Of a DNA stretch of 64,000 bases, positions 18,130-54,887 are shown one piece after another. Source of the stretch: Bryobacterales bacterium (GTDB lineage Bacteria; Acidobacteriota; Terriglobia; Bryobacterales; Bryobacteraceae); contig PLZX01000060.1 of the NCBI GenBank assembly GCA_003152325.1, positions 14,534 to 78,533 of the forward strand. The letters are read 5' to 3'. Within the stretch, counting starts at the first letter, position 1; each line of letters opens with the position of its first letter. The position numbers and the translations under genes were made by a program. The notes below the pieces were generated by a model. That model saw only the letters and a program-made list of their open reading frames with translations. It searched no databases and was not told where the DNA came from.

Positions 18130-18975
18130 CTACGCCTTTGCATATTTGGCAATCAACCGCTTGACTAGCGTGTGATGCGCCTTTACGACCTCGAGCGAAT
18201 CGGCATACTCGCCCAACTCGCCGCCTTCGAATTCCGTGGACATCCAGCCTCTGAAGCCGCCTGCCACCAGGGCTTTCACGATGCCATCGTAAGGTATTGC
18301 CGGAACATCGCCCTTGACCATCTGGTGGAACTTGCCGTGGACGTGGTTAATGTAGGGCGCCAGTTCCTTCAAAGTCGCGGGATTGGACGGCGGCGGCACC
18401 TCACCTTCCGGACCGACCGTGCCAGGCGCGACTTTTTCGAAAATGCTGCAGTCCGGGATCAGCCCCAGGTGCGGTGAAGAGATCTTCTTGACCTGCTGAA
18501 TCAACTCCTGCCCGAGGGGCGTTTCGAACATGATCGGTGTGTGCACCTCATACCCGATCTTGAGTTTGAGTTTCTCGGCGTACGGCAGCAGCCGCTCGAT
18601 CACCTTATAAATGAAGTATTGCGCGCGCACCACCGGGAAGCCCAGGCGCGCAGCGCCTTTCAGTTGCGGAATCGTATACTCGACCAGATCATCGTCGGTC
18701 AGGTCGCGATCGTGCCAGAAGAAGGGATCGGCGTACGCACCGTAAGAAGTGGGAACCAGGCTGTAGCGCTGGCAGGCGTTCTTGAACGTGGTCTCGAATT
18801 CCTTGGGGACGTTCGGAAAATCGCGGTGGTGCTGCGGACCGACGATCTCGACGCCCATGCCAGGGCCGAGTTCCGAGGCCTTTTTCATGCACTCGTCAAA
18901 CGACCATTTGTACGAGTAGAATTCAGTGGTGAAGCTGTATAGCGTGACGCCCACGCGGAAGGTGTTGGTTGCCAT
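18130..18975 (-). CDS. a9: xylose isomerase-like TIM-barrel protein (sugar phosphate isomerase/epimerase family), no signal; candidate glycoside lyase large subunit
   Basis: 281 aa. MATNTFRVGVTLYSF with no signal peptide. Motifs YEVHTP, LIPDCSIF, HVHGKFHQM, STEFEG. Lies 9 nt after the b9 stop, with a GAGG RBS. Confidence 0.8.
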   Translation of the reverse strand: MATNTFRVGVTLYSFTTEFYSYKWSFDECMKKASELGPGMGVEIVGPQHHRDFPNVPKEFETTFKNACQRYSLVPTSYGAYADPFFWHDRDLTDDDLVEYTIPQLKGAARLGFPVVRAQYFIYKVIERLLPYAEKLKLKIGYEVHTPIMFETPLGQELIQQVKKISSPHLGLIPDCSIFEKVAPGTVGPEGEVPPPSNPATLKELAPYINHVHGKFHQMVKGDVPAIPYDGIVKALVAGGFRGWMSTEFEGGELGEYADSLEVVKAHHTLVKRLIAKYAKA

Positions 18976-18984
18976 ATTGCGTCC

Positions 18985-19566
18985 TCAATCCACCTCTAGG
19001 CTTAGCCGCTTGGTGACCGCCTCATGAGGCCTTGCCCGCCCGCGCCCGCCGGTGCCGAACGGACCCTTCACGTTGATGTTGGCGGTAACTTCGTGTTCGC
19101 CCGGCGAAAGCGGGGTGACCCTGGGAACGAACAACTCCGCCCGGTCCAGAACAAACCACCAGGGGACGTCCTGCCAGCGGGTCCACTTGGTGAGCAGGTC
19201 GGGGACACGGTGGCTGTAACGATTGAGCGTCAGGATCATGTCCTTCGGGTCGAATTCTTCTCCGTCGACCGTCACCTCGAAACCTTCGACGCAGCAGAGA
19301 GGCTCGGCGCGATAGGGAACCATTCGCACTACCAACTGAAATCCCCTCTGTCCCTCGAGGGTGGTGTTCTTGAAGCCGTCTTCGCACAGCCAGAGAGGGC
19401 TTCGGAGCAGGTTCGGGTGCTGTTGCGGGCTGGGTTTGGGCGGCTGCTGCGCGACTGCTTGCGAAGTCGCGAGACCCGCGGTCAACGCCGCGCCGGTTGC
19501 CACCATCAGGCTACGCCGCGTGACGACGCCGGCTGAAAGGGAGCCAGGTGCTCTCTCGTTCTGCAT
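18985..19566 (-). CDS. b9: small partner protein carrying a Tat signal
   Basis: Start moved to ATG 19566, preceded by GGAGA. MQNERAPGSLSAGVVTRRSLMVATGAALTAGLATSQAVAQQ. C-terminal domain DGFKNTTLEGQRGFQLVV...VEGFEVTVDGEEFDP...SPGEHEV is alignable with b1-b8. Confidence 0.65.
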   Translation of the reverse strand: MQNERAPGSLSAGVVTRRSLMVATGAALTAGLATSQAVAQQPPKPSPQQHPNLLRSPLWLCEDGFKNTTLEGQRGFQLVVRMVPYRAEPLCCVEGFEVTVDGEEFDPKDMILTLNRYSHRVPDLLTKWTRWQDVPWWFVLDRAELFVPRVTPLSPGEHEVTANINVKGPFGTGGRGRARPHEAVTKRLSLEVD

Positions 19567-19607
19567 ATCATCTCCTTTCCTGAACGCGATCGGATTCCGT
19601 CGCGGGT

Positions 19608-20651
19608 TCACAACTTAAACAAGCGCTCCGCGTTGAGGTGATAGATTCTCTCGCGGTCTTCGTCGCTCATCGGAGTTCTCTCAAAGAACTGCACCGCCAG
19701 GTCTCCGTTCACGGCGGCAAAGTCCGTGGCGAAGAGGATGTGATCCGAGCCTATGGCGTTGATGGCGCAAGTCAGGGCCTCCGGATGGTAGTGTCCGCTG
19801 GTGCTGATGAAGATGTTCTCCTTGATATAGGCGGAGGGCGGCTTCTTGACTTTCCATGCCCTGGCGCCTTCATCCAGGCGACCTAGCCAGTAGGGAAGCA
19901 GCTCGCCGAGGTGGCCCAGGATCAGTTTCGCTTTAGGGAATTCGTCGAAAACGCCGCTGCCGATGATGCGAAGAACCTGCGTCCCGGTATAGATGGCGCC
20001 GGCCCACATCAGGTTCTGAACCTCGGCGTGGCCTTCCAGCAACTTGACGGATTCGGAATTGGGAATGTTGGGATGCAGGTAGAGGGGCACTTCGAGCGAA
20101 GCGGCGCACTCCCACAGCGGCCGGAAGGCCTGCGAGTCCAGGAATTCCCAATGCACGTGATCCTGGCCTTCGATCATGGCGCCGCGGAGCTTGAGTTTCG
20201 TGACGGCGCGCTCCAGTTCGGCAACGGCAGCCTTGGGATCCTGCGTGGGCAGAGCGGCCATGCCCGCAAAACGAGTGGGGTGCTTCACCACCGCTTCCGC
20301 CAGAATTTCATTGTTTACTTTGGCCAGATCCGTGGCTTTCGCCGCATCCGTGAGGAACTGGTAAGAGCTGTTCGAGATCACCTGCATGGTGACGCCCGCC
20401 GCATCCATTTCGCCCAGGCGGATGGCATCCAGATCAGCCTGGCGGTTTGCAGTCCCAGATGGGGTCCGCCCGGCGGCTTCGATGACGTTCAACGCCGTCC
20501 AGTGTTCTTCAACGCCGATCTTCTTGAACTGCTTGGGGGGCGGCGGCACCGCCTGCTGCGCGTGTAAGTTTCCCTGCAGCATCAACGGGGCGCCTGCCGC
20601 AAGAGCGGCCGTCCTGCCGAGAAATCCTCTTCTTCCGATTGCGCCGTTCAT
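19608..20651 (-). CDS. amidohydrolase_2 family protein (LigW/ACMSD-like) with Tat signal
   Basis: Start moved to ATG 20651 (MNGAIGRRGFLGRTAALAAGAPLMLQGNLHAQQ). IGVEEHW N-terminal metal motif, LYLHP, ATDF near the C-terminus. Confidence 0.8.
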   Translation of the reverse strand: MNGAIGRRGFLGRTAALAAGAPLMLQGNLHAQQAVPPPPKQFKKIGVEEHWTALNVIEAAGRTPSGTANRQADLDAIRLGEMDAAGVTMQVISNSSYQFLTDAAKATDLAKVNNEILAEAVVKHPTRFAGMAALPTQDPKAAVAELERAVTKLKLRGAMIEGQDHVHWEFLDSQAFRPLWECAASLEVPLYLHPNIPNSESVKLLEGHAEVQNLMWAGAIYTGTQVLRIIGSGVFDEFPKAKLILGHLGELLPYWLGRLDEGARAWKVKKPPSAYIKENIFISTSGHYHPEALTCAINAIGSDHILFATDFAAVNGDLAVQFFERTPMSDEDRERIYHLNAERLFKL

Positions 20652-20781
20652 TTTGAACTCCTGTAGTGACCAGACAATCACCGTGCCGCCATGCCAGGGA
20701 TCTCCAGGCATGGCGGTTTCCTAATTCAACGGCCTGAGCTCAGCAACTTGAGCGCAGCGGCCGGGCCGGAGCAGGCGGTGC

Positions 20782-21855
20782 TTACGCCACCTCACCGAAC
20801 AGCTTGCGCAACATAGCGTGGTGCCGGCGGAGCTGGTCGGAAGCGCGGAACAGATCGCGCGGACCCTCATACTCACTGGAGAAGTAGTGCTCGTAGCCGC
20901 CCTCAATGAAAGTCGGAATCACTTGCTCGTAGGGAATGCTGTACTCGTGCAAGTCCTCGGTCATCTCCCAGAACTTGCCGTGGACGTGGTAGACGTACGG
21001 CATCAACGGGAGCAGGTCCTTGGGATTGTTGTTGCTGAAGTGATAGACCCCGGCGAATGAGGCATACCGCAGTTCGGCTTCGTTGCCACCCATCTTCTTG
21101 ACTTCGGCTGTCGTCTTGTCCGGCCCCAGGTTGTTGATATAGGCGTTTCGGATGTATTGAATGATCTTCTCGCGCCCGCCCTGCCGCATCACGACGTCAT
21201 CGCGATACCTAGGCGGAGTCTTCGTGAAGATGCTCATGTCGGGCGTGAAGCCGAAGTGTTTTGTCTTGGTCCGGGTGATGATGTCCATCAGCTTGTGGAC
21301 GTCGTCCGAATTGAGGATGGCCGGCGAATGAAGTTCGATCGCGATCTTGACGTCGTATTCTTCCGCGTAAGGCAGGGCCTTTTCGATCAACTCCGGCACG
21401 GGGATGTCGGAGCTGCCGAAGGTGGGACGATTCACCTTGAATCCAAGGCGCTTGGCCAGTTTGAAATCGCGGACCATCATGTCCAGCGATTCCTTAACGG
21501 TCAACTGCCGGTCTTTGTGGAGCAGAGAATCCACGAAACTATCGAGACAGCTCGGCTTGGTTTTGTACTTATCCATCAGGCCGTGCCATTCCTCCACCCA
21601 GCGGTCGGTCGGGTTCGGATAGCCGTCAACGTGCGACTCTCCCAGAATTTCGATGCCTTCCGCGCCCATGTCGGCCACGTCGGCAATGCACTGCTCCAGG
21701 CTCATGGTTCCAGCCTGGAAGTCGCCGGTATAGCTGTACAACGTGACGCCGCGCTTGATCTTCGAAAGCGAAGCCGCCTTCGCCGGAGTATCAGAAAGGT
21801 ACGCAGCCGCTGCCGCCGCACCCGCCACCGTTTTCAGGAAATTTTTTCTTGTCAT
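20782..21855 (-). CDS. a1: Tat-signal xylose isomerase-like TIM-barrel protein, candidate glycoside lyase large subunit
   Basis: 357 aa. MTRKNFLKTVAGAAAAAAYLSDTPAKA. Motifs GVTLYSY, IELHSP, FTPDMSIF, HVHGKFWEM, SSEYEG. Confidence 0.8.
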   Translation of the reverse strand: MTRKNFLKTVAGAAAAAAYLSDTPAKAASLSKIKRGVTLYSYTGDFQAGTMSLEQCIADVADMGAEGIEILGESHVDGYPNPTDRWVEEWHGLMDKYKTKPSCLDSFVDSLLHKDRQLTVKESLDMMVRDFKLAKRLGFKVNRPTFGSSDIPVPELIEKALPYAEEYDVKIAIELHSPAILNSDDVHKLMDIITRTKTKHFGFTPDMSIFTKTPPRYRDDVVMRQGGREKIIQYIRNAYINNLGPDKTTAEVKKMGGNEAELRYASFAGVYHFSNNNPKDLLPLMPYVYHVHGKFWEMTEDLHEYSIPYEQVIPTFIEGGYEHYFSSEYEGPRDLFRASDQLRRHHAMLRKLFGEVA

Positions 21856-21893
21856 TTTGATTTCTCCTTACCTGAGTCCTTTGCTTCGGGCAA

Positions 21894-22289
21894 TCAAACC
21901 ACGAGTGGCATTTTCTTTTGGAAAAGGTAAGTGGAAGGCTTGATGGGCATGTAGGGGACGCGGATCTTCTCGACCACCTGCACATCGTGCATCCCCACTT
22001 TAAGGCCACCCACCTTGCTAACGGTGAGCGTCGCAACGTCGCGGAACGGCCAGCGTTGATCGGTAAGGTTGGTCAACTCGTCCAGAGTGAACGTCTGGTT
22101 GCCGAGGGAAAAACGGATCTGTTCGCGCTTGAACGTCTCTCCGTCGATGGTGACGTCAAAGCCCTCAACCAGCGAGAGGTAAACTCCTCGATAGTAGGCG
22201 GTGCGGAGTTGCAGTTGAAAGCCAGTCACCTGCCCTGCGCTGCTCACATTTTTGAATCCGCCTGGAAGCACCATGTCCTGCTCGGGCAT
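21894..22289 (-). CDS. b1: small partner protein (no signal)
   Basis: Start moved to ATG 22289, preceded by GGAGA. MPEQDMVLPGGFKNVSSAGQVTGFQLQLRTAYYRGVYLSLVEGFDVTIDGETF...ATLTVSKVGGLKVGMHDV...MPLVV. Confidence 0.7.
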   Translation of the reverse strand: MPEQDMVLPGGFKNVSSAGQVTGFQLQLRTAYYRGVYLSLVEGFDVTIDGETFKREQIRFSLGNQTFTLDELTNLTDQRWPFRDVATLTVSKVGGLKVGMHDVQVVEKIRVPYMPIKPSTYLFQKKMPLVV

Positions 22290-22351
22290 CGATTCTCCTT
22301 TCCTACGGCCACGCAGCGAGGCCGGCCGGAGCACAAGAACAACCCGCGATT

Positions 22352-22365
22352 CGATACAAGTGTCC
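22352..22365 (-). promoter_or_regulatory. candidate operator box GGACACTTGTATCG (gene orientation) upstream of b1
   Basis: Lies 62 nt upstream of the b1 ATG. Near-identical box GGACCACTTGTATCG at 51608..51622 upstream of b6. Confidence 0.3.
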
Positions 22366-22618
22366 TGCCAAAGTATACATGCGTGCGAGAGGATTTGGAA
22401 GGGTTTTGTGGTGTGAGGTGTTGGTTGTTGACGGACCGGAGGTTTTTCGGGAAGGGGTTGGTCGAGTTGAGTCAACCCCGACCGATTCGCTTACGCTCCC
22501 AGTTCTGTGGGGGTGCGTCGAACGAAGAGCGATCATCGCGATCCAAGAAGCGCTGGCTTTCAGCCGGCGGCAGCCAGGATTGGCTACCCGACAGAACAGG
22601 CGGTTCTGCGGCACATGT

Positions 22619-23893
22619 TTACCAGAAGTGGAAATCTACAATCCGCGGGGGGCCGACATTTCCGTTGATGACTTCCGTGCCAATTACCACCTGAAGGTTT
22701 TTTCTTTGCCAGCCCGCGGGCGCCTTCTTCGCCAGGGATTCCAGGTACTTGGACTGGGTTACAAACTCGCCTGCGGCCGTGGTGCCGTCCCTGCCCAGAC
22801 CGGCTAGAAGCAATACTGTCTGCTCCGTGCGAGGGTCGCTGAAGCGGGATATTACGGCCCAGTCTTCCGTGCGTCCCGAGTATGGCGCTGTGGGGTCGGC
22901 GCGCCATGGCGCCTGTGAACTCTTCTGACGGTCGACGATCTGCACCAGGCCGGTACTTGGATCTCGTTCGATGTAGAAACGCAATGCAGCGTTCAGACGC
23001 AGGGTCCAGGGATTGTTGATGGCGCCGATGAGAACGGAGGGCATCTTTCGCAAATCATCGAGGGTTAGCGACGCCGCGCGCCGGATTTCTACCTCTTTTC
23101 CGTCGGCCCCCAACATGGCGGAAACACGCGCCATGGTGATGGCGTCGGCGAAGCCTACCTGATCGGCGCGAAAGATCTCGAGCGAATTCAGCTCGTCGCC
23201 AGGCTTGGGAGGCTGGCCGGCATGAAGTGCCTGGTCCAGGCTTGTTCCAGCTCCCAGAATGATAGTGTCGGAGTTTCGCCAGATCGGCGTCCAGAAGGCT
23301 TTCCGCGGATCCTGGGGCCGCATGAGAACGCCCACGGCCGTAACCAGTGTGACCAAAATCACTCCCCCGATCAGCAAGGGTGTACGGTTACGAGCCTTTC
23401 TTGCGGACTGGGGAGCAATGGAAACACTGATATCCGGGGGAGTTTCAACGGCAGGCTGGGTGGAGACAGCCTGCTGCGCGGGCCCCGGATGCAGCGTTAC
23501 CGGCTCCAGGAAGCGGAATTCCGGAATGTACGATCCTGAAGCCACGTCAATCCGAAGTTCGGTTTCATGCCCAAGCTCGTGATAGTACTGGGCAAGGCGC
23601 TTGCGCACCTCCATGGCCGAGGTTCGGACAATCGGGTCTTCATTGGTATCGTAATCGGGCTGGCGTCCAAAAGCCGATATTCCGATGGTTCGTTCCTTCA
23701 ATTGCTCGCCGCGTCCCTCAAGCACTTCGCTCACCACGTAGCGTAGTAAAGAGTTGCAACGTTTGCTATTGCGGAACAGGTGGCTGGAGAGGATCTGCTC
23801 GAGTTGTGCGCGAATGGCGTCCCGATCCGCCTGCCTCTCCGGAGCGGAAGACGCAATCTCAGCGTCAGTGCCCGAAATGGTTCGTCCCTGCAT
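22619..23893 (-). CDS. ToxR/CadC-like membrane-anchored regulator (wHTH-like N-domain, one TM, periplasmic domain)
   Basis: 424 aa. N-domain LFRNSKRCNSLLRYVVSEVLEGRGEQLKERTIGISAFGRQPDYDTNEDPIVRTSAMEVRKRLAQYYHELGHETELRIDVASGSYIPEF parallels the OmpR/PhoB recognition-helix and wing pattern. TM segment TPLLIGGVILVTLVTAVGVLM. About 230 aa C-terminal domain. Confidence 0.55.
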   Translation of the reverse strand: MQGRTISGTDAEIASSAPERQADRDAIRAQLEQILSSHLFRNSKRCNSLLRYVVSEVLEGRGEQLKERTIGISAFGRQPDYDTNEDPIVRTSAMEVRKRLAQYYHELGHETELRIDVASGSYIPEFRFLEPVTLHPGPAQQAVSTQPAVETPPDISVSIAPQSARKARNRTPLLIGGVILVTLVTAVGVLMRPQDPRKAFWTPIWRNSDTIILGAGTSLDQALHAGQPPKPGDELNSLEIFRADQVGFADAITMARVSAMLGADGKEVEIRRAASLTLDDLRKMPSVLIGAINNPWTLRLNAALRFYIERDPSTGLVQIVDRQKSSQAPWRADPTAPYSGRTEDWAVISRFSDPRTEQTVLLLAGLGRDGTTAAGEFVTQSKYLESLAKKAPAGWQRKNLQVVIGTEVINGNVGPPRIVDFHFW

Positions 23894-24212
23894 GGCGGTG
23901 TATCGAAATTAGAGTCTAACATGCCCTACCCGTGGGCACGTTGCGGCAAGGCATGAACGGTGCAACACGGCTGCGTATAGGTCTGATTGCAGGCCGTTTA
24001 CGCCCGCGTTACTGTACCGCACGTAGGGAGGCAGGGCGACCCGCGCTAACATTGATCCGTTCGGTGTCTAGGCGTCCAGCGTGTTTACCCCAATCTCGGG
24101 TTGCGTGGATCATGATTGGGCACCGTCCGACATCGGCCAGGAATGGGCCGCGCGCCCAGCACTGGCGGCTTCCCCCCGCGGGCGGGATACCAGCGTGACA
24201 TAAGGAGAGAAA

Positions 24213-24608
24213 ATGTTCGACAAGTACATGCTGATCACCAGAGGTTTTCAGAACGTTACCCAGAATGGCCAGATCACCGGCTTTCAGATGAAGGTCCGCA
24301 TTACCTATTACAGAGGCGTGTTTTTGCCGCTCCTGACGGGTTTCGCCGTGACGGTGGATGGGGAGGAGTTCAAGCCGGAGCAGATGAGGTTTACCGTCAA
24401 CGACCACACCTACACCTTCGAGGAACTGGGGAAGGCGGAGAAGGTTCATTGGAATTTTGGCGACCCTGCGACCCTGACTGTTTTGAAACCGGGCGGCCTC
24501 AAACCTGGCATCCACCAGGTGGAAATTGTTGAAACCGTCAAGCCTTCGTACATGCCGGCCACGGGCTTCACCGGGCATACGAAGCGGAAGATCACTTTAG
24601 TGGCCTGA
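24213..24608 (+). CDS. b2: small partner protein (no signal)
   Basis: 131 aa. MFDKYMLITRGFQNVTQNGQITGFQMKVRITYYRGVFLPLLTGFAVTVDGEEFKP...WNFGDPATLTVLKPGGLKPGIHQV...KITLVA. AGGAGA RBS. Confidence 0.75.
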   Translation: MFDKYMLITRGFQNVTQNGQITGFQMKVRITYYRGVFLPLLTGFAVTVDGEEFKPEQMRFTVNDHTYTFEELGKAEKVHWNFGDPATLTVLKPGGLKPGIHQVEIVETVKPSYMPATGFTGHTKRKITLVA

Positions 24609-24648: not shown

Positions 24649-25728
24649 ATGACGCGAAAAGAATTCTTGAAAACAGTGACGGTGGCGGCAGCAGGAACGT
24701 TGATCCAGGCTGAGAACGCCGGCGCGCAGACGCCAAAGGCGAAGTTCAAGCGCGGCGTGACGCTGTACAGCTACCAGGAAGAGTACTACACGCATGCGAT
24801 GTCGCTCGAAGACTGCATCGCCGAAGTTGCGTCCATGGGAGCCGAAGGCGTCGAGGTGATTGCCGAAGAGATGGTACCCAACTATCCGGATCCGCCGGAA
24901 GCATGGGTGCAACACTGGCACGCGTTGATGGCAAAGTATCACACCAAACCGGCCTGTCTCGACACGTTTGTAGACGTTTACTGGGGCGGACGGCGGGATA
25001 TGACGGTCCAGGAATCGGTGGACACGCTGGCAGCGCAGTTGAAGCTGGCAAACCGGATGGGCTTCAAAGTAATGCGGCCGACTACCGGTCCGGTTCGCGA
25101 TTCCGCGCCGGAGATGATCGAGAAGGCCCTGCCGATCGCCGAGAAGTATGACGTTCGGATCACCCCGGAGATCCACGCACCTATTCCGACCAAGGGAAAG
25201 TTCATCGACTCCTACATGGAGATCATCGCCAAAACGAAGACCAAGTACCTGGGATTCAATCCGGACATGGGCATCTTCGCCAAGCGAATTCCGCGCATCG
25301 TACTTGCCCGGCACCTGCGGGACGGCGCGTCGGAGAAGGTCATTCAATACCTGGACCAGGCGTTCCAGGATGGCGTCAGCGCGGAAACCCGGGCAGCCGA
25401 AGCGGCCAAGATGAGCAACCGGGAAGAAGATGTGCGGGCAGCCTTGATGACGGGCGGTTACGGCCCCATTTCCAACAACCCCAGGGACCTGCTGGCCATC
25501 ATGCCGTACGTTTATAACGTTCACGGCAAGTTCTACGAAATGACGGACGATCTCAAGGAATACAGCATTCCTTACGACGAAGTGATGCCAATATTCATCG
25601 AAGGCGGCTACACCGGGTACATCAATAGCGAATACGAAGGGCAGCGCAACACCCAGGACGTGAAGGAGACGGATAGCTGCGAAGAGATCCGCCGCCACCA
25701 CGTGATGATGGCCCGGTTGATGGCGTAA
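24649..25728 (+). CDS. a2: Tat-signal xylose isomerase-like TIM-barrel protein
   Basis: 359 aa. MTRKEFLKTVTVAAAGTLIQAENAGAQ. Motifs GVTLYSY, PEIHAP, FNPDMGIF, NVHGKFYEM, NSEYEG. Confidence 0.8.
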   Translation: MTRKEFLKTVTVAAAGTLIQAENAGAQTPKAKFKRGVTLYSYQEEYYTHAMSLEDCIAEVASMGAEGVEVIAEEMVPNYPDPPEAWVQHWHALMAKYHTKPACLDTFVDVYWGGRRDMTVQESVDTLAAQLKLANRMGFKVMRPTTGPVRDSAPEMIEKALPIAEKYDVRITPEIHAPIPTKGKFIDSYMEIIAKTKTKYLGFNPDMGIFAKRIPRIVLARHLRDGASEKVIQYLDQAFQDGVSAETRAAEAAKMSNREEDVRAALMTGGYGPISNNPRDLLAIMPYVYNVHGKFYEMTDDLKEYSIPYDEVMPIFIEGGYTGYINSEYEGQRNTQDVKETDSCEEIRRHHVMMARLMA

Positions 25729-26271: not shown

Positions 26272-27330
26272 ATGGATATGACGCGGAAACAATTCCTGGG
26301 AACGGCCGCGGGGGCCACGACCGCGGGGTTGGCTCTATCGGCCGCCGACGCGCTGGCAGGGACCAAGGCAAGAGAACCATTTCACCTAGGGGTCACGCTC
26401 TATAGCTTTAATGACGAGTTCTATCATTACAAGTACTCGTTTCACGATTGCATGGAGAAGGCTGGATCTCTGGGCCCGGGCACGGGACTCGAGTTAGTCG
26501 GGCCGCAGATGATCAATAGCTGGCCCGAGGTGTCGCTGGAATTCGAAAGAACGTTCAAGAGCCTGGTGGAACGATACAACCTGCGGCCTGTGTCTTACGG
26601 CGGCTATGCGGATCCAGAAAGGATCACCGGCAAGTCGCTGACAGACGCGGAGAATGCGGAGTACATTAAGCTTCAACTCCGCAGCGCGAAACAACTGGGG
26701 TTCCCGATTATCCGGGGAGGACGTGGCGATCTGGTGGCCTATGCGGAGAAATACGGTGTCAAGATGGCGCCGGAAATTCATTCGCCGCATATCATCGAAA
26801 GTCCGGAGACACAGAAGTTACTGGCGGAAGTCAGTAAGATCAACTCCCCGTTCTACGGAGTAACTCCTGATTGCGGCGTGTTCGCATCCAAATGCGCCAA
26901 GCCTTATCTGGACAAGTTTACGCAGATGGGCGTGCCTGCCCCGATCCGAACGCGCATCGTCGAAATGTGGCAGCAAAAGCTGCCGCTCGACAAGATGTTT
27001 GCCGAAGTCAAGGCTATGGGCGGCGACGAGATGGCGATGCTGATGGCCCGCGAATCGAAGATTTACTTCGGACAGGGCGATCCGAAAGCGCTACTCCAGA
27101 TCATGCCCTACGTCATTCACTGCCACGGGAAGTTTTTTGGCATGGACCCGAAGACTGGAGACGAACCTGCGGTGCCGTATCCGGAAATCATCGCCGCTTT
27201 CACGAAGGGCGGCTTCAAGGGAACCATGGTGTCCGAGTACGAAGGCCACCATTGGATGCCGGGCGGAGATGCCCTGTGGCAGGTCAAGACTCATCAGGCC
27301 ATGATCCGGAAGTTGTTCGCAAAAGCCTGA
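26272..27330 (+). CDS. a3: Tat-signal xylose isomerase-like TIM-barrel protein (a9/a10-like subfamily)
   Basis: 352 aa. MDMTRKQFLGTAAGATTAGLALSAADALA. Motifs GVTLYSF, PEIHSP, VTPDCGVF, HCHGKFFGM, VSEYEG. N-terminal region aligns best with a9 and a10 (YKYSFHDCMEKAGSLGPGTGLELVGPQ). Confidence 0.8.
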   Translation: MDMTRKQFLGTAAGATTAGLALSAADALAGTKAREPFHLGVTLYSFNDEFYHYKYSFHDCMEKAGSLGPGTGLELVGPQMINSWPEVSLEFERTFKSLVERYNLRPVSYGGYADPERITGKSLTDAENAEYIKLQLRSAKQLGFPIIRGGRGDLVAYAEKYGVKMAPEIHSPHIIESPETQKLLAEVSKINSPFYGVTPDCGVFASKCAKPYLDKFTQMGVPAPIRTRIVEMWQQKLPLDKMFAEVKAMGGDEMAMLMARESKIYFGQGDPKALLQIMPYVIHCHGKFFGMDPKTGDEPAVPYPEIIAAFTKGGFKGTMVSEYEGHHWMPGGDALWQVKTHQAMIRKLFAKA

Positions 27331-27382: not shown

Positions 27383-27772
27383 ATGCAATACAACATTCTC
27401 AACAGAGGATTCAAAAATGTTTCGCAGAACGGGCAGGTAAACGGATTCAAAATCGACGTCCTGTCCGGTTATTATCGCGGCGTCTACGTGACGTTGATTG
27501 AAGGATTCGATGTGACCGTGGATGGCAAAACCTTCCCGCGGGACCAGGTGCGCTGCACCTTCGGCAGCAAGACATACACGCAGGACCAGTTGGAAAAACT
27601 ATCCGACGTGCGCTGGCAATGCGACGAGCCGGTCACGCTGCTGGTTAGCAAGGCGGGGGGGCTGGAACCTGGGATGCATGACATCAAGGTGGTGGCGAAG
27701 ATCCGGGTTTCGTACATGCCGGTGCAGCCCAGTGTGTACAACTTTGAAGCCAGGATCCCATTGGTAGGATGA
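27383..27772 (+). CDS. b4: small partner protein (no signal)
   Basis: 129 aa. MQYNILNRGFKNVSQNGQVNGFKIDVLSGYYRGVYVTLIEGFDVTVDGKTFP...VTLLVSKAGGLEPGMHDI...IPLVG. Confidence 0.75.
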   Translation: MQYNILNRGFKNVSQNGQVNGFKIDVLSGYYRGVYVTLIEGFDVTVDGKTFPRDQVRCTFGSKTYTQDQLEKLSDVRWQCDEPVTLLVSKAGGLEPGMHDIKVVAKIRVSYMPVQPSVYNFEARIPLVG

Positions 27773-27809: not shown

Positions 27810-28943
27810 ATGGACATTACACGAAAAGAATTCTTCGGAACACTAGCAGCCGGGGCCGCCACGGCCTATCTGACAAACTCCGCCGCCGCTCCAGCGAACG
27901 CCGCACCGGCAGGCTCGTCGAAAATGAAGCTCGGCATCACCGCGTATAGCTACACTTACGACCTTCGGGCACGCGCCATGACCCTGGAAGACGTGGTCGC
28001 GGATGTCGCCGATATGGGGGGCGAGGGCGTGGAGATCCTGGGCGAGGCACACGTGCCGGGCTATCCGAATCCGCCGCAGAAGTGGGTGGAGCAGTGGTTC
28101 GCCTGGATGGAGAAGTATCACACCAAGCCCAGCGCGTACGACACGTTCGTCGACACGATGTTTTATAAGGACCGGCTGTTGACCGTGGACGAAGCCGTCG
28201 AACGCCTCGTGACCGATTTCAAACTGGCCAACCGGCTCGGCTTCAAAGTGCTGCGGCAGCAATGGCCGCCGTACAAGGCGGACAATCCAGCCGATCAGAT
28301 CTGGGCCCCGTATTGCAAGTCGGCAATGGCAATGCAGGTGATGCAGAAGGCGCTTCCCTTCGCCGAGAAGTATGACGTGAAGATGGCGGTGGAGCTGCAT
28401 TCGCCCACGCAATTGAAATCGGAATGGATTGACGATTTCCTGGAGGTTCTGAACAGAACCAAGACGAAGCATTTCGGCTTCTGCCCGGACATGAGCATCT
28501 TCGTCGAGCGGGCGCCCAAGAGCCACCTTACCGAACTGCGCCGCGAGGGGGCACGAGATAACATCCTCGATTACATCAACAGGGCTTACGAAGAGAACCT
28601 GGGGGCCGAGAAGACGGTCGCCGAGGTGGTGAAGATGGGTGGCAATGAGGCCGAACAGAAGTGGGGCTCGATGGCCGGCATCTATCACTTCAGCAAGAAC
28701 GACCCCAAGGACATGGCGCGGCTGGCACCTTATATTTATCACGTCCACGCGAAATTCTACGAGATGATGGACGACCTGCACGAGTACAGCATCCCGTACG
28801 AAACAGTGATTCCGGTGCTTGCCGCCGGCGGCTATAGCGGTTACCTCTCAAGCGAGTATGAAGGCGCACGCGAGGACTTCCAGACGTCGGCGCAGATCCG
28901 CCTGCAGCAAGTCATGCTGAAGCGATTGCTGGCAGCAGTCTAG
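27810..28943 (+). CDS. a4: Tat-signal xylose isomerase-like TIM-barrel protein
   Basis: 377 aa. MDITRKEFFGTLAAGAATAYLTNSAAAPANA. Motifs GITAYSY, VELHSP, FCPDMSIF, HVHAKFYEM, SSEYEG. Confidence 0.8.
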   Translation: MDITRKEFFGTLAAGAATAYLTNSAAAPANAAPAGSSKMKLGITAYSYTYDLRARAMTLEDVVADVADMGGEGVEILGEAHVPGYPNPPQKWVEQWFAWMEKYHTKPSAYDTFVDTMFYKDRLLTVDEAVERLVTDFKLANRLGFKVLRQQWPPYKADNPADQIWAPYCKSAMAMQVMQKALPFAEKYDVKMAVELHSPTQLKSEWIDDFLEVLNRTKTKHFGFCPDMSIFVERAPKSHLTELRREGARDNILDYINRAYEENLGAEKTVAEVVKMGGNEAEQKWGSMAGIYHFSKNDPKDMARLAPYIYHVHAKFYEMMDDLHEYSIPYETVIPVLAAGGYSGYLSSEYEGAREDFQTSAQIRLQQVMLKRLLAAV

Positions 28944-29064: not shown

Positions 29065-29529
29065 ATGCTAGAGAGAGAACCAGTTCAACAGCGAGGATTT
29101 AAGAACGTCTATAAGGATGGCCAGTGCGTCGGTTTCCAAATACTTTATAGATCGAGGTACTACCGGGGGATCTGGCTGTCCCTGTCTAAGGGGTTTTCCG
29201 TCCTGGTGGATGGCGAGTTGTTTCCGAGGGAGGCGATTACGGTCACCATCGGAGGCAAGACGTACACGCAGGATCAGATGACAAAGATCGGCGATGTTCA
29301 CTGGGGACGAAGTGAGCCGGCCATTCTGACAGTGGCCAAGCCGGGCGGCCTCAAGATGGGGGTGCACGAGGTTACAGTCAATTGGTCCCACCGTGTCTCC
29401 TACATGGCTCCAGTCCCCAAAGCCCCTAAACAGACTGAAGCGGCCGTAGTTGGCGGTCCTGGCGCGACAGGCATCGCCGGTGCTTTTGGCGGCGGCAACT
29501 GCACACGGGACCTGGTGTTGATGAGATGA
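29065..29529 (+). CDS. b5: small partner protein with Gly/Ala-rich C-terminal extension (no signal)
   Basis: Start moved to ATG 29065, after an AGGAGA/AAGGA RBS. MLEREPVQQRGFKNVYKDGQCVGFQILYRSRYYRGIWLSLSKGFSVLVDGELFP...AILTVAKPGGLKMGVHEV. Then an extra tail ...AAVVGGPGATGIAGAFGGGNCTRDLVLMR. Confidence 0.7.
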   Translation: MLEREPVQQRGFKNVYKDGQCVGFQILYRSRYYRGIWLSLSKGFSVLVDGELFPREAITVTIGGKTYTQDQMTKIGDVHWGRSEPAILTVAKPGGLKMGVHEVTVNWSHRVSYMAPVPKAPKQTEAAVVGGPGATGIAGAFGGGNCTRDLVLMR

Positions 29530-29560: not shown

Positions 29561-30562
29561 ATGACGCGAAAAGACTTTCTGAACACTGTTGCGGGCGGGG
29601 CTCTCGTTTCCGCCATATCCGCGACCACAACCACGACTGCTTCCGCGGCTCCCGAGAGGAAGGGTCCCAAGCGTGGCGTCTCTATTTACAGCTATGCGCA
29701 TGACTTCGACGTGACTGCGACCTTGGAAGACTGTCTCATGGAGGTTTCCGAATTGGGAACGCCGGGCCAGAAAATGGGCTTGGAGATTCTCGCCAACGGG
29801 CACATTGAAGGTTATCCCAAGCCGAGCGAAGCGTGGGTGAGGAACTGGCACGACATGTGCACCAAGTTCGACCTCCTCCCCGTGGAGTATGGCCACTGGA
29901 TAGACTCCAAACTGTATGCCGAAGGACCGGAAGGTTTGTTGGACACGAAAGAGTCGGTAGCGAAGCTTATTGATGACATTAAGCTGGGCAACAGGCTCGG
30001 ATTCACACGGGGCCGGACCAAACTCGGGATGATTGATAACGACGGAATGCCCACGCCGAACTGGCGGGAAATCATTAAAGGGGCTCTCCCCGCCGCGGAA
30101 AAGTACAACTTCCGGATGCTGACCGAGTTCCATTCACCCACGCCTTTGAAGGGACGGGTGATGGATGAGTATATGGACTTCATCACGAAGGAGAAGTGCA
30201 ATCCCTGGTTCGGACTGAACGTCGACTTTAGCGTGTTCCAGACCCAACGTGGAGAGGGAGGATTAGGAGGTCCGAGCACTGGGCCGGGACGGCCAGCGTT
30301 CACCATGCCGCTTTCCCAACCCGAGGACATCATCCCGTATCTGCCCTACGTGCATTGCTGTCACGCCAAGTTCAACGAGATTAACAGAGACTGTGTAGAC
30401 CAGACGATTCCATACCCGGCGATCATCAAGATTCTGGTGGAGCACCAGTGGGATGGCTACATGATGAGCGAATACGAGGGATTGGACAAGCTCACCGGCG
30501 GGTCCTGGTCCGCTGTTCGCAGACAGCACGTCATGCTGAAGCGCTTGCTGGGCGAGGCATAG
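29561..30562 (+). CDS. a5: Tat-signal xylose isomerase-like TIM-barrel protein
   Basis: 333 aa. MTRKDFLNTVAGGALVSAISATTTTTASA. Motifs GVSIYSY, TEFHSP, LNVDFSVF, CCHAKFNEI, MSEYEG. Confidence 0.8.
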   Translation: MTRKDFLNTVAGGALVSAISATTTTTASAAPERKGPKRGVSIYSYAHDFDVTATLEDCLMEVSELGTPGQKMGLEILANGHIEGYPKPSEAWVRNWHDMCTKFDLLPVEYGHWIDSKLYAEGPEGLLDTKESVAKLIDDIKLGNRLGFTRGRTKLGMIDNDGMPTPNWREIIKGALPAAEKYNFRMLTEFHSPTPLKGRVMDEYMDFITKEKCNPWFGLNVDFSVFQTQRGEGGLGGPSTGPGRPAFTMPLSQPEDIIPYLPYVHCCHAKFNEINRDCVDQTIPYPAIIKILVEHQWDGYMMSEYEGLDKLTGGSWSAVRRQHVMLKRLLGEA

Positions 30563-30617
30563 CAGATTAGCGCAAAGTACCGGGCGCCTTCCTGTGATCT
30601 GAATTTGACCGCCCGCT

Positions 30618-31589: not shown

Positions 31590-31636
31590 GGCGTCGCACC
31601 TGTACGTGTGGGGTGGGCTTCGAGTGTCGCAAACGG

Positions 31637-33004: not shown

Positions 33005-33026
33005 AATGGCCGTCCAGATTCCCTGA

Positions 33027-34829
33027 TCAGAGCGCTGCTCGGTTTGCCGGAATTAGCGGAATCTGCAGGAACGAGTCGTACTCACCGCCGGCGTGGATGA
33101 CGTGGTCACCCCGGTTGATGGTCGGGATGGCGGGACCTACCGACGAAGCGGCGCCGCTCGCGATCACCACGCGCAATTGCTCACCGGCGTGCCACAACAT
33201 GCTTGCAGGCCACAGCGAAATTTCCACCGGAACAATTTGCGCGGGAGCCAGGGGCTCCGAGACCGTGTGAGTGAGATACGGCTCCCAAGGTGTCGAGCGC
33301 GCAGGATCCAGGCGCCGCTGCGAAACGCGGATCCGTCCCTTAGGCCCCGTGTAGGCGGGATTCGCCGGCGAGGTGACAATCTGTGCGACCTGTCCGGCGG
33401 CGTCCACTTTCTGAATGTCGACGAACAGATCCATATCGTCCGCTGCAGGCGCTTGTACCCAGAGGTGGAGCTTAAAGTACCCGGTCAGCTCCGTGTCACG
33501 GTCGAAACGATGATTGAATGCAACGTGCCCATCGGGCGATTCCGAGTTGTACCGCGCGGTTGCCGCCTTGGCGACGGGCGCTGGTGAAAGCCCATTGGCC
33601 TCCGCATCCAGGTAAAGCTTGGTGTACTGGGTCCGAGCCAGCGGAAATTCCTTTTCAGGACGGTAGAGAACGTCGTGGCCGCTTGGATCGAGGATCGTCA
33701 ACCGGACGCGCGGCGTCGACTCCCAGCCGTTCTTCACGCCTCTCAAGTAACGGTCGAAGAACTTCCTCAGATCTTCAGTCGCGGCGGAACTGTAAAGGTC
33801 GGGCCACTCATGTGAATTGTGAACGCGCAGCCATTTTTCGTTGGAAGCCAGGCGGCGGAAAGCGTTGAACGTACCGTGCGTGTGCAGCGAATTGGTCCAG
33901 GTGGCGCTGACATACGCAGGGATATGGATATTCTCAACGCGCGCGATCTTGTCTTCCCAATACTCATTCATCAAGGGGTACCGGCGGGCCATCGCGGCGG
34001 TATCTTCAACGCGGTTCTTGCCTCTCATGCGGCCAAGGATACCGTCGGTAAAGGCGAGATCCGGAATGCCTCCGCGCATCAGAGAATCGCGATACACGTC
34101 GTCGATGCCTTCCCACGGGGCGATGGCGGCGAGGTGCGGGGGTTGCTCGGCGGCAATGAACCATTGAGAAATGGCCAGCCAGGAATTTCCAGCCAGGCCG
34201 ATCTTGCCCTGGCACCAATCGCGCGCGGCCAGCCATTCGATGAGGTCGCGAGCATCGAGGGCGTCGAAGCGGCCCCAGCAGTGAATGTCGCCTTCGGAGT
34301 GCAAAGCACCGCGGATGTCTGGGTTCACCACGGCGTAGCCATGATTGCACCAGTAGGCCGGGTCAGGCGCCTCGAATTTCTCCATGGCGGAGACGGAACT
34401 CAGAGGCACGCCACCGCGATTGGGAAACGAGTCCATTCGGGCGTCGCCGGCCGACTTCCCGTATGGGCTCCAACAGACCACGGCGGGGACTTTGCCGCCC
34501 AACGCGGGACGGAAGATGTCGGTGTACAGCACTACGCCGTCACGCAGCTTCACCGGCACATCGCGTTCGAAAATGATGTCGCAGGGCAAGGGCAGGGCGC
34601 CGGGAATCTTGACGAATCCCTTGAGCAGGATGGTTTTGGTGGTTTGGAAATCAGGATATCCGGGTTCGGACGTACCTGCCGACGTAGCTTTCCGGAATTG
34701 CACCGGAATACTTCCGACTGCGTCACTCTGCGGCTCCGCGGATGTTTTCTTATCCGGCGCTCCGCGAAGAATCGCCTGGGATGCAACGCTCGCCAACAGA
34801 AAACCACGTCTTGAGAATTTTGAGTTCAT
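33027..34829 (-). CDS. CocE/NonD family hydrolase (S15 alpha/beta hydrolase) with Tat-type signal
   Basis: Start moved to ATG 34829 (MNSKFSRRGFLLASVASQAILRG). Motifs CWSPYGKS and GLAGNSWLAISQW (nucleophile elbow). Long C-terminal beta domain. Confidence 0.7.
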   Translation of the reverse strand: MNSKFSRRGFLLASVASQAILRGAPDKKTSAEPQSDAVGSIPVQFRKATSAGTSEPGYPDFQTTKTILLKGFVKIPGALPLPCDIIFERDVPVKLRDGVVLYTDIFRPALGGKVPAVVCWSPYGKSAGDARMDSFPNRGGVPLSSVSAMEKFEAPDPAYWCNHGYAVVNPDIRGALHSEGDIHCWGRFDALDARDLIEWLAARDWCQGKIGLAGNSWLAISQWFIAAEQPPHLAAIAPWEGIDDVYRDSLMRGGIPDLAFTDGILGRMRGKNRVEDTAAMARRYPLMNEYWEDKIARVENIHIPAYVSATWTNSLHTHGTFNAFRRLASNEKWLRVHNSHEWPDLYSSAATEDLRKFFDRYLRGVKNGWESTPRVRLTILDPSGHDVLYRPEKEFPLARTQYTKLYLDAEANGLSPAPVAKAATARYNSESPDGHVAFNHRFDRDTELTGYFKLHLWVQAPAADDMDLFVDIQKVDAAGQVAQIVTSPANPAYTGPKGRIRVSQRRLDPARSTPWEPYLTHTVSEPLAPAQIVPVEISLWPASMLWHAGEQLRVVIASGAASSVGPAIPTINRGDHVIHAGGEYDSFLQIPLIPANRAAL

Positions 34830-34899
34830 ATAGAGGTTCTTAACGTGGTTACAGGAGGACGGCTCCAATGGCCGCAAGAATTCTCGTGATCGGTCCGCA

Positions 34900-35784
34900 T
34901 CAGGCCTTCGAGTACTTGGCGATCGCATCTTTGACAATCTTGTGATGCACCTGGACGACCTCGAAGGAGTTCTGGTATTCGCCCAGTTCCCCGCCCTCGA
35001 ACTCAGTTGACATCCAACCCTTGAATCCGAGCTTGAGCAGAAGTTCCGTAATCTTGTCGAACGGAACCGCGGGAATCGTACCCTTCTCGGCCCAGTGAAA
35101 TTTCCCGTGCATGTGCATCATCCACGGCGCAACATCCACCAGGCGCTCGTAGTCCGCCGCCGGGATGCGTTGAGGACTCTGTCCCCCGCCTTCTCCACGG
35201 CCTCCGGTTCCCGGCGCTGGACCCGCCGGACCCTTTCCTCCGCGCTCCTTTCTCCGGTCTTCAAACATGTTGCAGTCCGGATTGAAGCCCAGCCATTCCG
35301 AGTTGATCCGCTTCACGGTTTCGACCATCGTGCCTTCGGGATTCATGAGGTTGCTTCCCGAAGTGATCTCCACCGCCAACTTCACCTTCATCTTCTCTGC
35401 TACCGGCGCCAATCTCTCCAGCAACGGATCACACCCCGGCGTCTGGATGCGGCAGAGCGGAAAACCCAATTTCTTCGTGGTCTGCATCTGGAGAATGTGA
35501 AAATCGAAGCGATCATCCAGATCCACCACGATGGCGGCTTCCGAGTACGCACCATACTGCGTGGGGGTCAACTCCCAACGCTCGCAGCCGCTCTTGAAGG
35601 CGCGCTCAAACTCGTTGGAGAGTCCCGGCCAACAGCGGTGGTGCATCGGTCCCACGATCTCGACGCCCTTGTCGCCTCCCGTCATCGAGGCCAGTTGCAT
35701 GCAGTCTTCGAAGGACCACTCATGATTAAGGTATTCGAGCTGCAAGCTGTATAGCGAAGCGCCAACCTTAAATGTGTTTGCCAT
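34900..35784 (-). CDS. a10: xylose isomerase-like TIM-barrel protein without signal; the His of the E-x-H motif is replaced
   Basis: Start at ATG 35784 (MANTFKVGASLYSL), after GGGAGGA. VEITSG where the other nine a proteins have E(I/L/V/F)H. Other motifs FNPDCNMF, HMHGKFHWA, STEFEG. Carries a G/P-rich insert KERGGKGPAGPAPGTGGRGEGGGQSP. Confidence 0.75.
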   Translation of the reverse strand: MANTFKVGASLYSLQLEYLNHEWSFEDCMQLASMTGGDKGVEIVGPMHHRCWPGLSNEFERAFKSGCERWELTPTQYGAYSEAAIVVDLDDRFDFHILQMQTTKKLGFPLCRIQTPGCDPLLERLAPVAEKMKVKLAVEITSGSNLMNPEGTMVETVKRINSEWLGFNPDCNMFEDRRKERGGKGPAGPAPGTGGRGEGGGQSPQRIPAADYERLVDVAPWMMHMHGKFHWAEKGTIPAVPFDKITELLLKLGFKGWMSTEFEGGELGEYQNSFEVVQVHHKIVKDAIAKYSKA

Positions 35785-35801
35785 ATTTTCCTCCCATTGC
35801 C

Positions 35802-36443
35802 TCAAAGAGCGAGATACGCTACTTCATCCGAGATTTTCAAACGCTCCTTGGCGCCATTTGTCGCCGTTCCAGCGTTGTAAGTGTTGGCATAGTTGTAGTC
35901 CACCGCCACTTCATGCTCTCCCGGCGAAATACTTCCTGGGACGAAAAGAGTTGCCCAGTCGAACACCCACCATTGCATGCCCAGAAGGTTTTTCAACTCG
36001 CTCGGCTTGTAGGCAGTGTTGTTGTACACAAAGATCATTGTGTTAGGGTCCACCGCCTTCCCGTCCAGAGACACGGTGAGATCTTTGACCGTATAGATGG
36101 GGATGCCGCGGTAGCCAGTCGGCTTGATCTGCACGGACCACCCGGCTTGCTTCTTGAACTTGGCGATCTTGATGCCCTCTTGCACATTGATGAGGCTGGT
36201 CAGCCGATGCTGGCCGCCGGTAGGGGCGCCAGCCAGAGCGTTGGCATCGCCGCCTCTCGTGAGCCGCTTCGGCAGCCATTCCAGCGGTGACCTTGCCGGC
36301 ACGCGCGCTCCACCAGTCGACGTCGCCTTGCTTGCCGCGCTCTGAGCGAAGCCGCTCGACGCCATGGCGCCGCCGCCAAGGGCTCCCGCGGTCAGGATCA
36401 AGGCCCTTCGGCTGATTCGACTTGTTCTTAGATACTCAGGCAT
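35802..36443 (-). CDS. b10: small partner protein carrying a Tat signal
   Basis: 213 aa. MPEYLRTSRISRRALILTAGALGGGAMASSGFAQSA. C-terminal domain ...GWSVQIKPTGYRGIPIYTVKDLTVSLDGKAVDP...SPGEHEVAV is alignable with b9. Confidence 0.6.
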   Translation of the reverse strand: MPEYLRTSRISRRALILTAGALGGGAMASSGFAQSAASKATSTGGARVPARSPLEWLPKRLTRGGDANALAGAPTGGQHRLTSLINVQEGIKIAKFKKQAGWSVQIKPTGYRGIPIYTVKDLTVSLDGKAVDPNTMIFVYNNTAYKPSELKNLLGMQWWVFDWATLFVPGSISPGEHEVAVDYNYANTYNAGTATNGAKERLKISDEVAYLAL

Positions 36444-54882: not shown

Positions 54883-54887
54883 GGTTA

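Follow-up and report, generated by a model that had tools for sequence, protein, structure and literature searches.

Ten C-glycoside deglycosidase pairs with one Tat-type leader each, borne by either subunit: a predicted case of hitchhiker export

This locus raises the question of why, in ten pairs of adjacent genes for a two-subunit enzyme, one subunit of each pair, and not always the same one, begins with what looks like an export signal. The pairs lie in a 64,000-nucleotide stretch of a Bryobacterales bacterium (contig PLZX01000060.1; the whole stretch is referred to as the window) and encode the beta and alpha subunits, b1/a1 to b10/a10, of putative C-glycoside deglycosidases (CGDs). An earlier reading of the letters alone (the original prediction) had proposed that these leaders are signals for twin-arginine translocation (Tat), and that each complex crosses the membrane on a single signal. 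Such Tat hitchhikers, in which signal-less partners are co-exported with a signal-bearing subunit, are known (PMC4273604, PMC6719666). From the comparisons described here, we consider hitchhiker co-export of the assembled CGD complex through Tat to be the best reading of the locus, and probably the correct one.

To establish what the pairs are, we searched the window by tblastn with one alpha and one beta subunit of each type, which recovered exactly 10 alpha and 10 beta CGD genes. The order was always beta then alpha (10/10 pairs), with intergenic gaps of 9-87 nt. Seven pairs lie inside 18130-36443, the interval originally given for the locus; that interval does not hold for the other three, which are located at 51739-58734 (51739-53230, 53470-54844 and 57143-58734). 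A Pfam scan covering five alphas and five betas assigned all five alphas to PF01261, the xylose-isomerase-like TIM barrel, and all five betas to PF19906 (CGDB/DUF6379, 'C-glycoside deglycosidase beta subunit'; E = 4e-39 to 2e-15). The solved structures closest to the window subunits are CGDs, namely 8QVC, 7BVR/7EXZ (DgpB-C), 7DNM (AgCGD2) and 7BVS (EuCGD); PDB CGD alpha chains match the window alphas at E = 1e-79 to 3e-36, and b9 matches PDB CGD beta chains. All ten alphas are mutually alignable, with E174, D206, H292, K294 and E330 (a2 numbering) as invariant columns in 10/10. The spacing of these residues (32, 86, 2 and 36) is near that of the Mn2+ ligands of AgCGD2, E147, D179, H269, K271 and E305 (PMC8563793), and the five columns, mapped by spacing and motif, are consistent with the Mn2+ ligand set. 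Judged by sequence, the ten pairs are CGDs, each with a Mn2+-binding alpha TIM barrel and a small beta-sandwich subunit, and they are predicted to cleave 3-oxo-glycosides at the C-C (or C-O) bond. They resemble DgpB/DgpC (PuCGD), DfgA/B (EuCGD), CarB/CarC (MiCGD), AgCGD2 and 8QVC/8QRZ in joining a PF01261 alpha to a PF19906 beta encoded by adjacent genes (PMC8563793). CGDs are obligate alpha-beta Mn2+ heterocomplexes with the active site where the subunits meet, and their subunits cannot be swapped between enzymes (PMC8563793).

In eight pairs the leader is on the alpha subunit:

21894..22289, minus strand: b1, CGD beta, leaderless (MPEQDMVLPGGFKNV)
20782..21855, minus strand: a1, CGD alpha, leader MTRKNFLKTVAGAAAAAAYLSDTPAKA (~21775-21855)
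24213..24608, plus strand: b2, CGD beta, leaderless; Pfam CGDB at residues 2-113, E = 3.7e-39
24649..25728, plus strand: a2, CGD alpha, leader MTRKEFLKTVTVAAAGTLIQAENAGA (~24649-24726); PF01261
25786..26184, plus strand: b3, CGD beta, leaderless; Pfam CGDB at residues 14-111
26272..27330, plus strand: a3, CGD alpha of the a9/a10 subfamily, with leader MDMTRKQFLGTAAGATTAGLALSAADALA (~26272-26358)
27383..27772, plus strand: b4, CGD beta, leaderless
27810..28943, plus strand: a4, CGD alpha, leader MDITRKEFFGTLAAGAATAYLTNSAAAPANA (~27810-27902)
29065..29529, plus strand: b5, CGD beta, leaderless; Pfam CGDB at residues 3-113; in-frame upstream stretch hydrophilic
29561..30562, plus strand: a5, CGD alpha, leader MTRKDFLNTVAGGALVSAISATTTTTASA (~29561-29647)
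51739..52131, plus strand: b6, CGD beta, leaderless; beyond 18130-36443
52154..53230, plus strand: a6, CGD alpha, leader MTRKHFIQTLSAAAAATMLQGEGQAQ
53470..53871, plus strand: b7, CGD beta, leaderless
53897..54844, plus strand: a7, CGD alpha, leader MTRKSFLEVMAGTAAVAAMPLSAAPA
58237..58734, minus strand: b8, CGD beta, leaderless
57143..58219, minus strand: a8, CGD alpha, leader MDMTRKTFLQTVAGATAALAASSVADA

In the other two pairs the arrangement is reversed:

18985..19566, minus strand: b9, CGD beta with a canonical RR leader, MQNERAPGSLSAGVVTRRSLMVATGAALTAGLATSQAVA (~19450-19566); Pfam CGDB at residues 60-167
18130..18975, minus strand: a9, CGD alpha, leaderless (MATNTFRVGVTLYSF); PDB 7BVR_A (DgpC) at E = 3e-41, aligned from residue 6
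35802..36443, minus strand: b10, CGD beta with a canonical RR leader, MPEYLRTSRISRRALILTAGALGGGAMASSGFAQSA (~36336-36443)
34900..35784, minus strand: a10, CGD alpha, leaderless (MANTFKVGASLYSL)

Exactly one partner per pair bears a Tat-type leader in 10/10 window pairs, as had been proposed, and each pair is in this respect what a hitchhiker complex is: a hetero-oligomer with a single signal-bearing subunit. If ten signals were placed at random on the 20 proteins, one per pair would be expected with p = 2^10/C(20,10) = 0.0055, a value in which independence is overstated, the proteins being paralogues. A leader tally, for which every alpha-beta pair in the window and in 109 related genome and metagenome loci was parsed, counted 136 pairs without a leader, 17 with a leader on alpha only (11 RK, 6 RR), about 8 distinct pairs with one on beta only (RR) and 0 with leaders on both. 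Some pairings in the window array were assigned as alpha followed by beta instead of beta followed by alpha, which left the last count unaffected. Over 113 related loci and the window, about 25 distinct leader-bearing pairs had one leader and 0 had two; additional pairs in loci L110 and L112 conform to the rule, and a beta RR leader with a leaderless alpha recurred in the independent contigs L079, L087, L090, L091 and L112. The 136 leaderless pairs came mainly from Chloroflexota, Bacteroidota, Bacillota, Burkholderiaceae and Actinomycetota. Three automatic calls were revised by eye: the beta 'leaders' of L060 and L082 were false, the upstream reading lying outside the gene, and were rejected, while the motif 'RH' in L079 was a misreading of MTRHNLMTRKEFL and was corrected. 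Since CGDs depend on the alpha-beta interface for their activity and only one subunit bears a signal, the partner would have to travel along.

Next, we considered whether the leaders belong to the genes at all. The eight alphas open, in agreement with the original prediction, as M(D[MI])-T-R-K-x-F-[LFI] (MTRKNFL, MTRKEFL, MDMTRKQFL, MDITRKEFF, MTRKDFL, MTRKHFI, MTRKSFL and (MD)MTRKTFL). The TRK motif is followed by an uncharged, Ala/Gly/Thr-rich hydrophobic region (h-region) of 13-30 residues; an AxA-type site is present in 7/8 leaders, 20-30 residues in, and leads into a Lys/Arg-rich early mature region. True starts elsewhere, which would remove the TRK leaders, had been named in the original prediction as a possible refutation. 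A GGAG-type Shine-Dalgarno sequence stands 5-10 nt before 7/8 leader ATGs (a8 being read from its MDM start; a4 has only GAGAGGAAAAT), and in the eight TRK alphas no later start retains the conserved first strand K-R-G-V-T-L-Y-S-Y. The first 30 residues of a2 are an N-terminal add-on, because the alignment to the alpha chains of solved CGDs begins at a2 residue 31 (PDB 8QVC_A, E = 1e-79). The partners b1-b8 are indeed signal-less: the CGDB domain is entered at residues 2-14, and no hydrophobic N-terminal stretch was found, also when the genes were translated back to the upstream stop.

The Tat consensus is S/T-R-R-x-F-L-K, with which T-R-K-x-F-L agrees at 6/7 positions, the helix-capping T and the Phe included. 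In the structure of TatBC with a signal peptide, there is a helix-capping residue, the Phe packs into TatC, and the second Arg is salt-bridged to TatC E103 (PMC13323110); a Lys could keep this last contact. In the TorA leader, K, N or Q could replace the second Arg with export retained (DeLisa 2002, as cited in PMC1182353). The regions behind the motif are of the Tat type as well, being of low hydrophobicity, Gly/Ala/Thr-rich and, in 7/8, closed by AxA. The top 10-residue Kyte-Doolittle window scored 1.5-2.05 in the TRK leaders and 1.55-1.98 in the window RR leaders, versus 2.4-3.15 in Sec-type leaders, in a comparison of small sets of which the Sec-type one consisted of three window leaders. 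A window-wide scan found N-terminal RK leaders confined to the eight alphas. The other Tat-like leaders in the window are all RR (7/7), as originally noted: three Gfo/Idh/MocA proteins, one amidohydrolase, an S15/CocE-type hydrolase, b9 and b10. The exact probability of RK in 8/8 alphas versus 0/7 elsewhere is 1/6435, where again independence is overstated, the genes being paralogues.

The relatives of these proteins supplied the strongest of the four lines of evidence. Among the best 120 homologues of a2, 39 had RK, 33 had RR at the same position, 24 were leaderless and 10 were beta-alpha fusions; the RR homologues carry the same x-F-L and h-region behind the motif as the RK ones. Homologue P0002, 86% identical to a2, has the N-terminus MRRREFLQT. 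A neighbour-joining tree built from 230 alphas showed RK in several old paralogue clades, comprising 50 clusters at 90% identity, with RR nested three times within RK clades (P0002, P0017, P0065) and RQ, RS and RT once each; a separate Bryobacterales/Steroidobacteraceae clade was uniformly RR. In the survey of orthologues that the original prediction had called for, RK is kept in 50 clusters, and others have RR or, rarely, RQ, RS or RT. Because RR occupies the same position in orthologues, the TRK leaders and the canonical RR ones share a common origin, and the restriction of the variation to the second position matches, by analogy, the mutational work on TorA. On motif, composition, homology and precedent, the TRK leaders are twin-arginine-type leaders as far as sequence can tell; they are predicted to depend on Tat and to be cleaved.

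Several points weigh against Tat co-export. Consecutive arginines, present in b9 and b10, are absent from the eight alpha leaders, which lack the second Arg, and the a6 leader has no clear AxA site. The generic TAT_signal hidden Markov model TIGR01409 scored no TRK leader, and the profile matches that the TRK leaders did give, to the leader regions of formate_TAT, MelC1 and BagZ, were weak and sub-threshold (E = 2e-4 to 0.1; the a5 leader matched the formate_TAT model TIGR02811 weakly, at 21.4 bits). Conservative R-to-K changes are mostly poorly tolerated in E. coli (PMC7317946), and all 34 validated Tat substrates of P. aeruginosa have strict RR (PMC6085387). The tat genes of the source organism were not seen within the window and lie beyond it. 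Finally, the zero count of pairs with two leaders is statistically weak, because most pairs in other phyla are leaderless. As for the profile models, TIGR01409 gave b9 14.3 bits versus a cut-off of 16.7, missed the S15 protein's RR leader and scored only one RR leader well. Since it misses an RR leader, the model is insensitive, and its misses count neither way. In Pfam, there was no TAT_signal match for any window leader, RR leaders included.

If the TRK leaders were instead Sec signals, or dual Sec/Tat signals, then alpha would cross the membrane unfolded, and beta would be unneeded or take another route. The missing second Arg, the silence of TIGR01409, the very short n-region and the overlap of Tat and Sec leaders in hydrophobicity are what this reading would expect, and the majority of Tat leaders from E. 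coli can engage Sec when given a compatible passenger (PMC7317946). However, it leaves b1-b8 without a signal even though CGD activity needs the alpha-beta interface, and the hydrophobicity of the h-regions is like that of the window RR leaders and unlike that of the window Sec leaders. Whereas Sec n-regions are unconstrained in sequence (PMC7317946), T-R-K-x-F-L is conserved in 50 clusters and interchanges with RR; moreover, the early mature region is crowded with basic residues, and the reversed pairs are unambiguously RR. We consider export by Sec unlikely.

The same h-regions bear on whether the leaders are uncleaved signal anchors, perhaps inserted by Tat, that would hold the enzymes in the cytoplasmic membrane and give no soluble periplasmic enzyme. 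Stretches of 13-30 uncharged residues and the lack of a clear AxA site in a6 would suit an anchor, and membrane-anchored Tat-inserted proteins are known (PMC10924467). However, the AxA-type sites of 7/8 leaders stand 20-30 residues in, with helix-breaking Pro, Gly or Ser before the cleavage sites, and h-regions rich in Ala, Gly and Thr and low in hydrophobicity suit a stable transmembrane helix poorly. Membrane anchoring is, in our estimate, very unlikely.

The two reversed pairs carry leaders of 36-39 residues with T-R-R-S-L-M (b9) and S-R-R-A-L-I (b10). The RR leaders of b9 and b10 and the lack of leaders on a9 and a10 stood as first described; the start quoted for b9, a V, did not, as the ATG at 19566 is most likely the start. 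All 16 b10 homologues with an intact N-terminus have an x-S-R-R-x-L leader. In the public gene call P0228, which is identical to window b10 (35802-36443), an internal start (LILTAG…) was chosen and the RR motif omitted, so that automated start calls can hide Tat leaders. The b10 family also has a conserved segment of ~45 residues between the RR leader and CGDB (b10 residues ~48-95, 36160-36300; homologues P0230-P0247), with the pattern RSP[LV][ED]WLPK…RGGD…AGAP[ST]G[GA]QH[RH]LTS[LF]IN, which the other betas lack.

Subunit a3 links the two arrangements. It is ~48% identical to a9 versus ~26% to the other alphas, and the neighbour-joining tree agrees in placing it in the a9/a10 subfamily, where it bears a leader all the same, as the original prediction had stated. 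The further claim that the signal moved between subunits within this subfamily fared less well: the leader is on alpha in a3 and on beta in the pairs of a9 and a10, but neither subunit bears a leader in the nearest relatives of the a3 clade and of the a9/a10 clades. Because of these leaderless relatives, separate gains fit better, and a leader seems to have been gained on alpha in the a3 clade and separately on the betas of the a9 and a10 clades. The a3 orthologues P0122, P0124, P0125 and P0126 have full TRK leaders, and P0123 has the TRK motif with a weaker h-region. The a3-type leader (MDMTRKQFLGTAAGA) is strongly similar to those of a4 and a8, and may have been taken from a neighbouring paralogue. 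We also considered a3 as a chimera, whose leader and lid would come from subfamily 1 and whose core from subfamily 2, and dropped the idea because leaderless subfamily-2 relatives are similarly long.

Some relatives of a3 have changed or lost the leader. In P0121 (L110:10001-11422, on 8 contigs), the b3 and a3 orthologues are fused into one protein of 473 residues, whose linker (…LTLVGRDWCPSDDFAGSAIGTAAVAKAASPAEPFQMGVTLYSF) keeps an a3-type h-region, but neither the TRK motif nor the stop codon of beta survives; here the former leader appears to have been recycled into an interdomain linker, with no N-terminal signal left. The close relatives P0127 and P0128 have decayed-looking N-terminal extensions (e.g. 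MERAKKESLGKAAKAETAAATK) with a charged h-region and no TRK motif, which suggests a recent loss of export in some lineages.

Such decay is informative if one supposes that the window leaders are themselves vestigial, or their starts mis-called, and that all ten enzymes stay in the cytoplasm, as the characterised CGDs do. All biochemically studied CGDs (from Actinobacteria, Firmicutes and Deinococcus) are leaderless, solved chains begin at the barrel, and the majority of public pairs lack leaders on both subunits. However, the Shine-Dalgarno motifs stand ahead of the leader ATGs, the motif is conserved as amino acids across 50 clusters despite synonymous codon change, and true loss of a leader is visible as decay (P0127, P0128) or fusion (P0121). 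We find a cytoplasmic location of all ten enzymes hardly credible. Unlike the characterised CGDs, every window pair has one Tat-type leader, and ten paralogous pairs stand within 64 kb; in the papers that could be searched, no CGD is described with a signal peptide, as a Tat substrate or as periplasmic.

We next turned to the Lys that replaces the second Arg. Its codon is AAA in 8/8 window leaders (21844-21846, 24658-24660, 26287-26289, 27825-27827, 29570-29572, 52163-52165, 53906-53908 and 58202-58204), and also in the public loci L001 and L012. In the rest of the same alpha genes AAG:AAA is 160:49 (23% AAA), and the chance of 8/8 is 0.234^8, or ~1e-5. Since synonymous variation is seen in the motif's Thr, Arg and Phe codons, common descent by itself does not account for the fixed AAA. 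The Lys may therefore be kept mainly by selection on nucleotides for an A-rich, unstructured 5' end of the coding region. This explanation complements export by Tat: the motif stands at codons 3-4, AAA would be the cheapest basic codon, and Tat would tolerate Lys in second position. Besides the codon bias and the synonymous variation around it, it would accord with the second Arg of Bryobacterales RR leaders, which is AGA, one transition from AAA, with the rare CGA or AGA used for the first Arg in 4/8 window leaders, and with the RR motifs of b9, b10 and the Gfo proteins, which lie farther from the start codon. However, where Steroidobacteraceae encode RR at codons 3-4 they retain CGT, CGA or CGC, the two arginines of E. 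coli MdoD stand at residues 3-4 (PMC13323110), and AGA would serve an A-rich 5' end nearly as well as AAA. Selection at the nucleotide level is quite possible, if somewhat short of probable.

Redox Tat substrates use dedicated proofreading chaperones. One could imagine that Arg-Lys replaces them here as an adaptively weakened signal, which would delay targeting until Mn2+ is bound and beta captured, while the leader would be a portable module exchanged by recombination. The portable-module part draws on the swapping of the leader between subunits and on its recycling as a fusion linker. As a whole, we regard this idea as rather unlikely.

In hitchhiker co-export through Tat, each pair would be made from its beta-alpha bicistron, and would fold, bind metal and heterodimerise in the cytoplasm. 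The Tat translocase would then export the pair to the periplasm via the single signal peptide, with the leaderless subunit as hitchhiker. In eight pairs the signal would be the variant T-R-K-x-F-L on alpha, whose Lys could still pair with the conserved TatC glutamate, and in two pairs the canonical S/T-R-R-x-L signal on beta. The export of folded metal enzymes is the usual rationale for Tat, which Mn2+ CGDs would fit. The actual export and co-transport of the pairs are inferred.

Both the enzymes and the mechanism are of kinds already known. Like the CGD pairs, the hitchhiker complexes HybO/HybC (NiFe hydrogenase-2), DmsA/DmsB, PaoABC and MelC1/MelC2 (tyrosinase) are stable hetero-oligomers that hold a cofactor or metal and have a single signal-bearing subunit, and in the Burkholderia FAD-glucose dehydrogenase and the Rhizobium glycoside 3-dehydrogenase it is the small subunit that bears the Tat signal. 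As far as we know, each of these hitchhiker families has its signal on one and the same subunit, whereas among the CGD pairs of this one genome it is alpha in eight and beta in two. A further difference is that no dedicated chaperone gene is evident and that co-export is here predicted from genes. A GlycDH with a 'TAT-pathway signal protein' operates in the same 3-oxidation/elimination pathway (PMC10628242). Natural variants of the Tat motif include Salmonella TtrB (K-R), the plant Rieske protein (K-R) and E. coli penicillin amidase (R-N-R) (PMC1182353, PMC7317946). In TtrB and Rieske the first Arg is replaced, whereas in the window alphas and their relatives it is the second (R-K, rarely R-Q, R-S or R-T); penicillin amidase has an inserted residue. 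Each of these is a single protein, whereas R-K is the norm of a whole paralogue family across 50 clusters. The sole precedent that we found in the literature for a change of the second Arg is mutational (TorA). We know of no earlier case of a whole family with R-K, or of a signal-bearing subunit that differs between paralogues.

Other genes of the window bear on the proposed route:

16648..18120, minus strand: Gfo/Idh/MocA oxidoreductase, RR leader MNKFSRRHFFYGALLAGAV; probable glycoside 3-dehydrogenase of the periplasm
8762..10111, minus strand: Gfo/Idh/MocA oxidoreductase, RR leader …MDRREFLKAATVAGATLAGA; TIGR01409, 28.6 bits
10217..11830, minus strand: Gfo/Idh/MocA oxidoreductase, RR leader MESDINRRKFLGSAALTTAAF
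36596..39982, minus strand: large receptor-like outer-membrane protein, Sec-type Leu-rich leader MLVRHRAFLLLVTFCALLLCSTSLLAQA, which served as Sec contrast; candidate TonB receptor, as read from the sequence

A major facilitator superfamily (MFS) sugar transporter is encoded near the CGD pairs, and the window has two Amidohydro_2 proteins, of which only one bears an RR leader. In the periplasm, the CGDs would come second, downstream of the neighbouring Gfo/Idh/MocA 3-dehydrogenases, which Tat would export as well. In Bacteroides, the Gfo counterpart bears a Tat signal and is regarded as periplasmic (bioRxiv 2024.03.25.586180). There, the AL/BT2157-2160 cluster combines a Tat-signal Gfo/Idh/MocA 3-dehydrogenase with xylose-isomerase-like TIM barrels in the periplasm (bioRxiv 2024.03.25.586180); in that cluster, however, the isomerase-like proteins have Sec or lipoprotein signals and no CGDB partner, whereas the window has two-subunit CGDs with Tat-type leaders. 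By this analogy, the Gfo leaders, the MFS transporter and the receptor-like protein would fit a periplasmic route of oxidation followed by elimination.

With ten paralogous CGD pairs in 64 kb, whose alphas share 23-60% identity, the window is an unusually large glycoside-deglycosylation locus. Its nearest relative in the species collection searched is a Terriglobia metagenome-assembled genome, at 82% identity. Most of an insertion of ~60 residues, which separates the metal ligands Asp and His (alignment A1, columns ~245-300), is missing from a9 and a10 (281 and 294 residues). The insertion, which corresponds to the lid region of CGD structures, is present in a1-a4, a6 and a8, and a5 and a7 are shortened there too; where it is reduced, as in a9 and a10, the substrate range may differ. 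Between pairs 1 and 2, an open reading frame of 424 residues (22619-23893, minus strand) has no Pfam match at E <= 0.001; its N-terminus resembles a DNA-binding regulator, and it has a single central hydrophobic segment.

Predictors that require RR (TATFIND, default TatP) would miss RK leaders, and counts of Tat substrates in Acidobacteria may be too low. For the expression of these CGDs as active protein, the leader must be removed or both subunits co-expressed. The locus offers a natural experiment on the hitchhiker principle, with a single Tat signal on either subunit of one enzyme family, and a large natural collection of second-position twin-arginine variants (RK, RQ, RS and RT). In conclusion, if these complexes are exported as predicted, the finding alters the picture of how plant polyphenol glycosides are taken up and turned over in soil.

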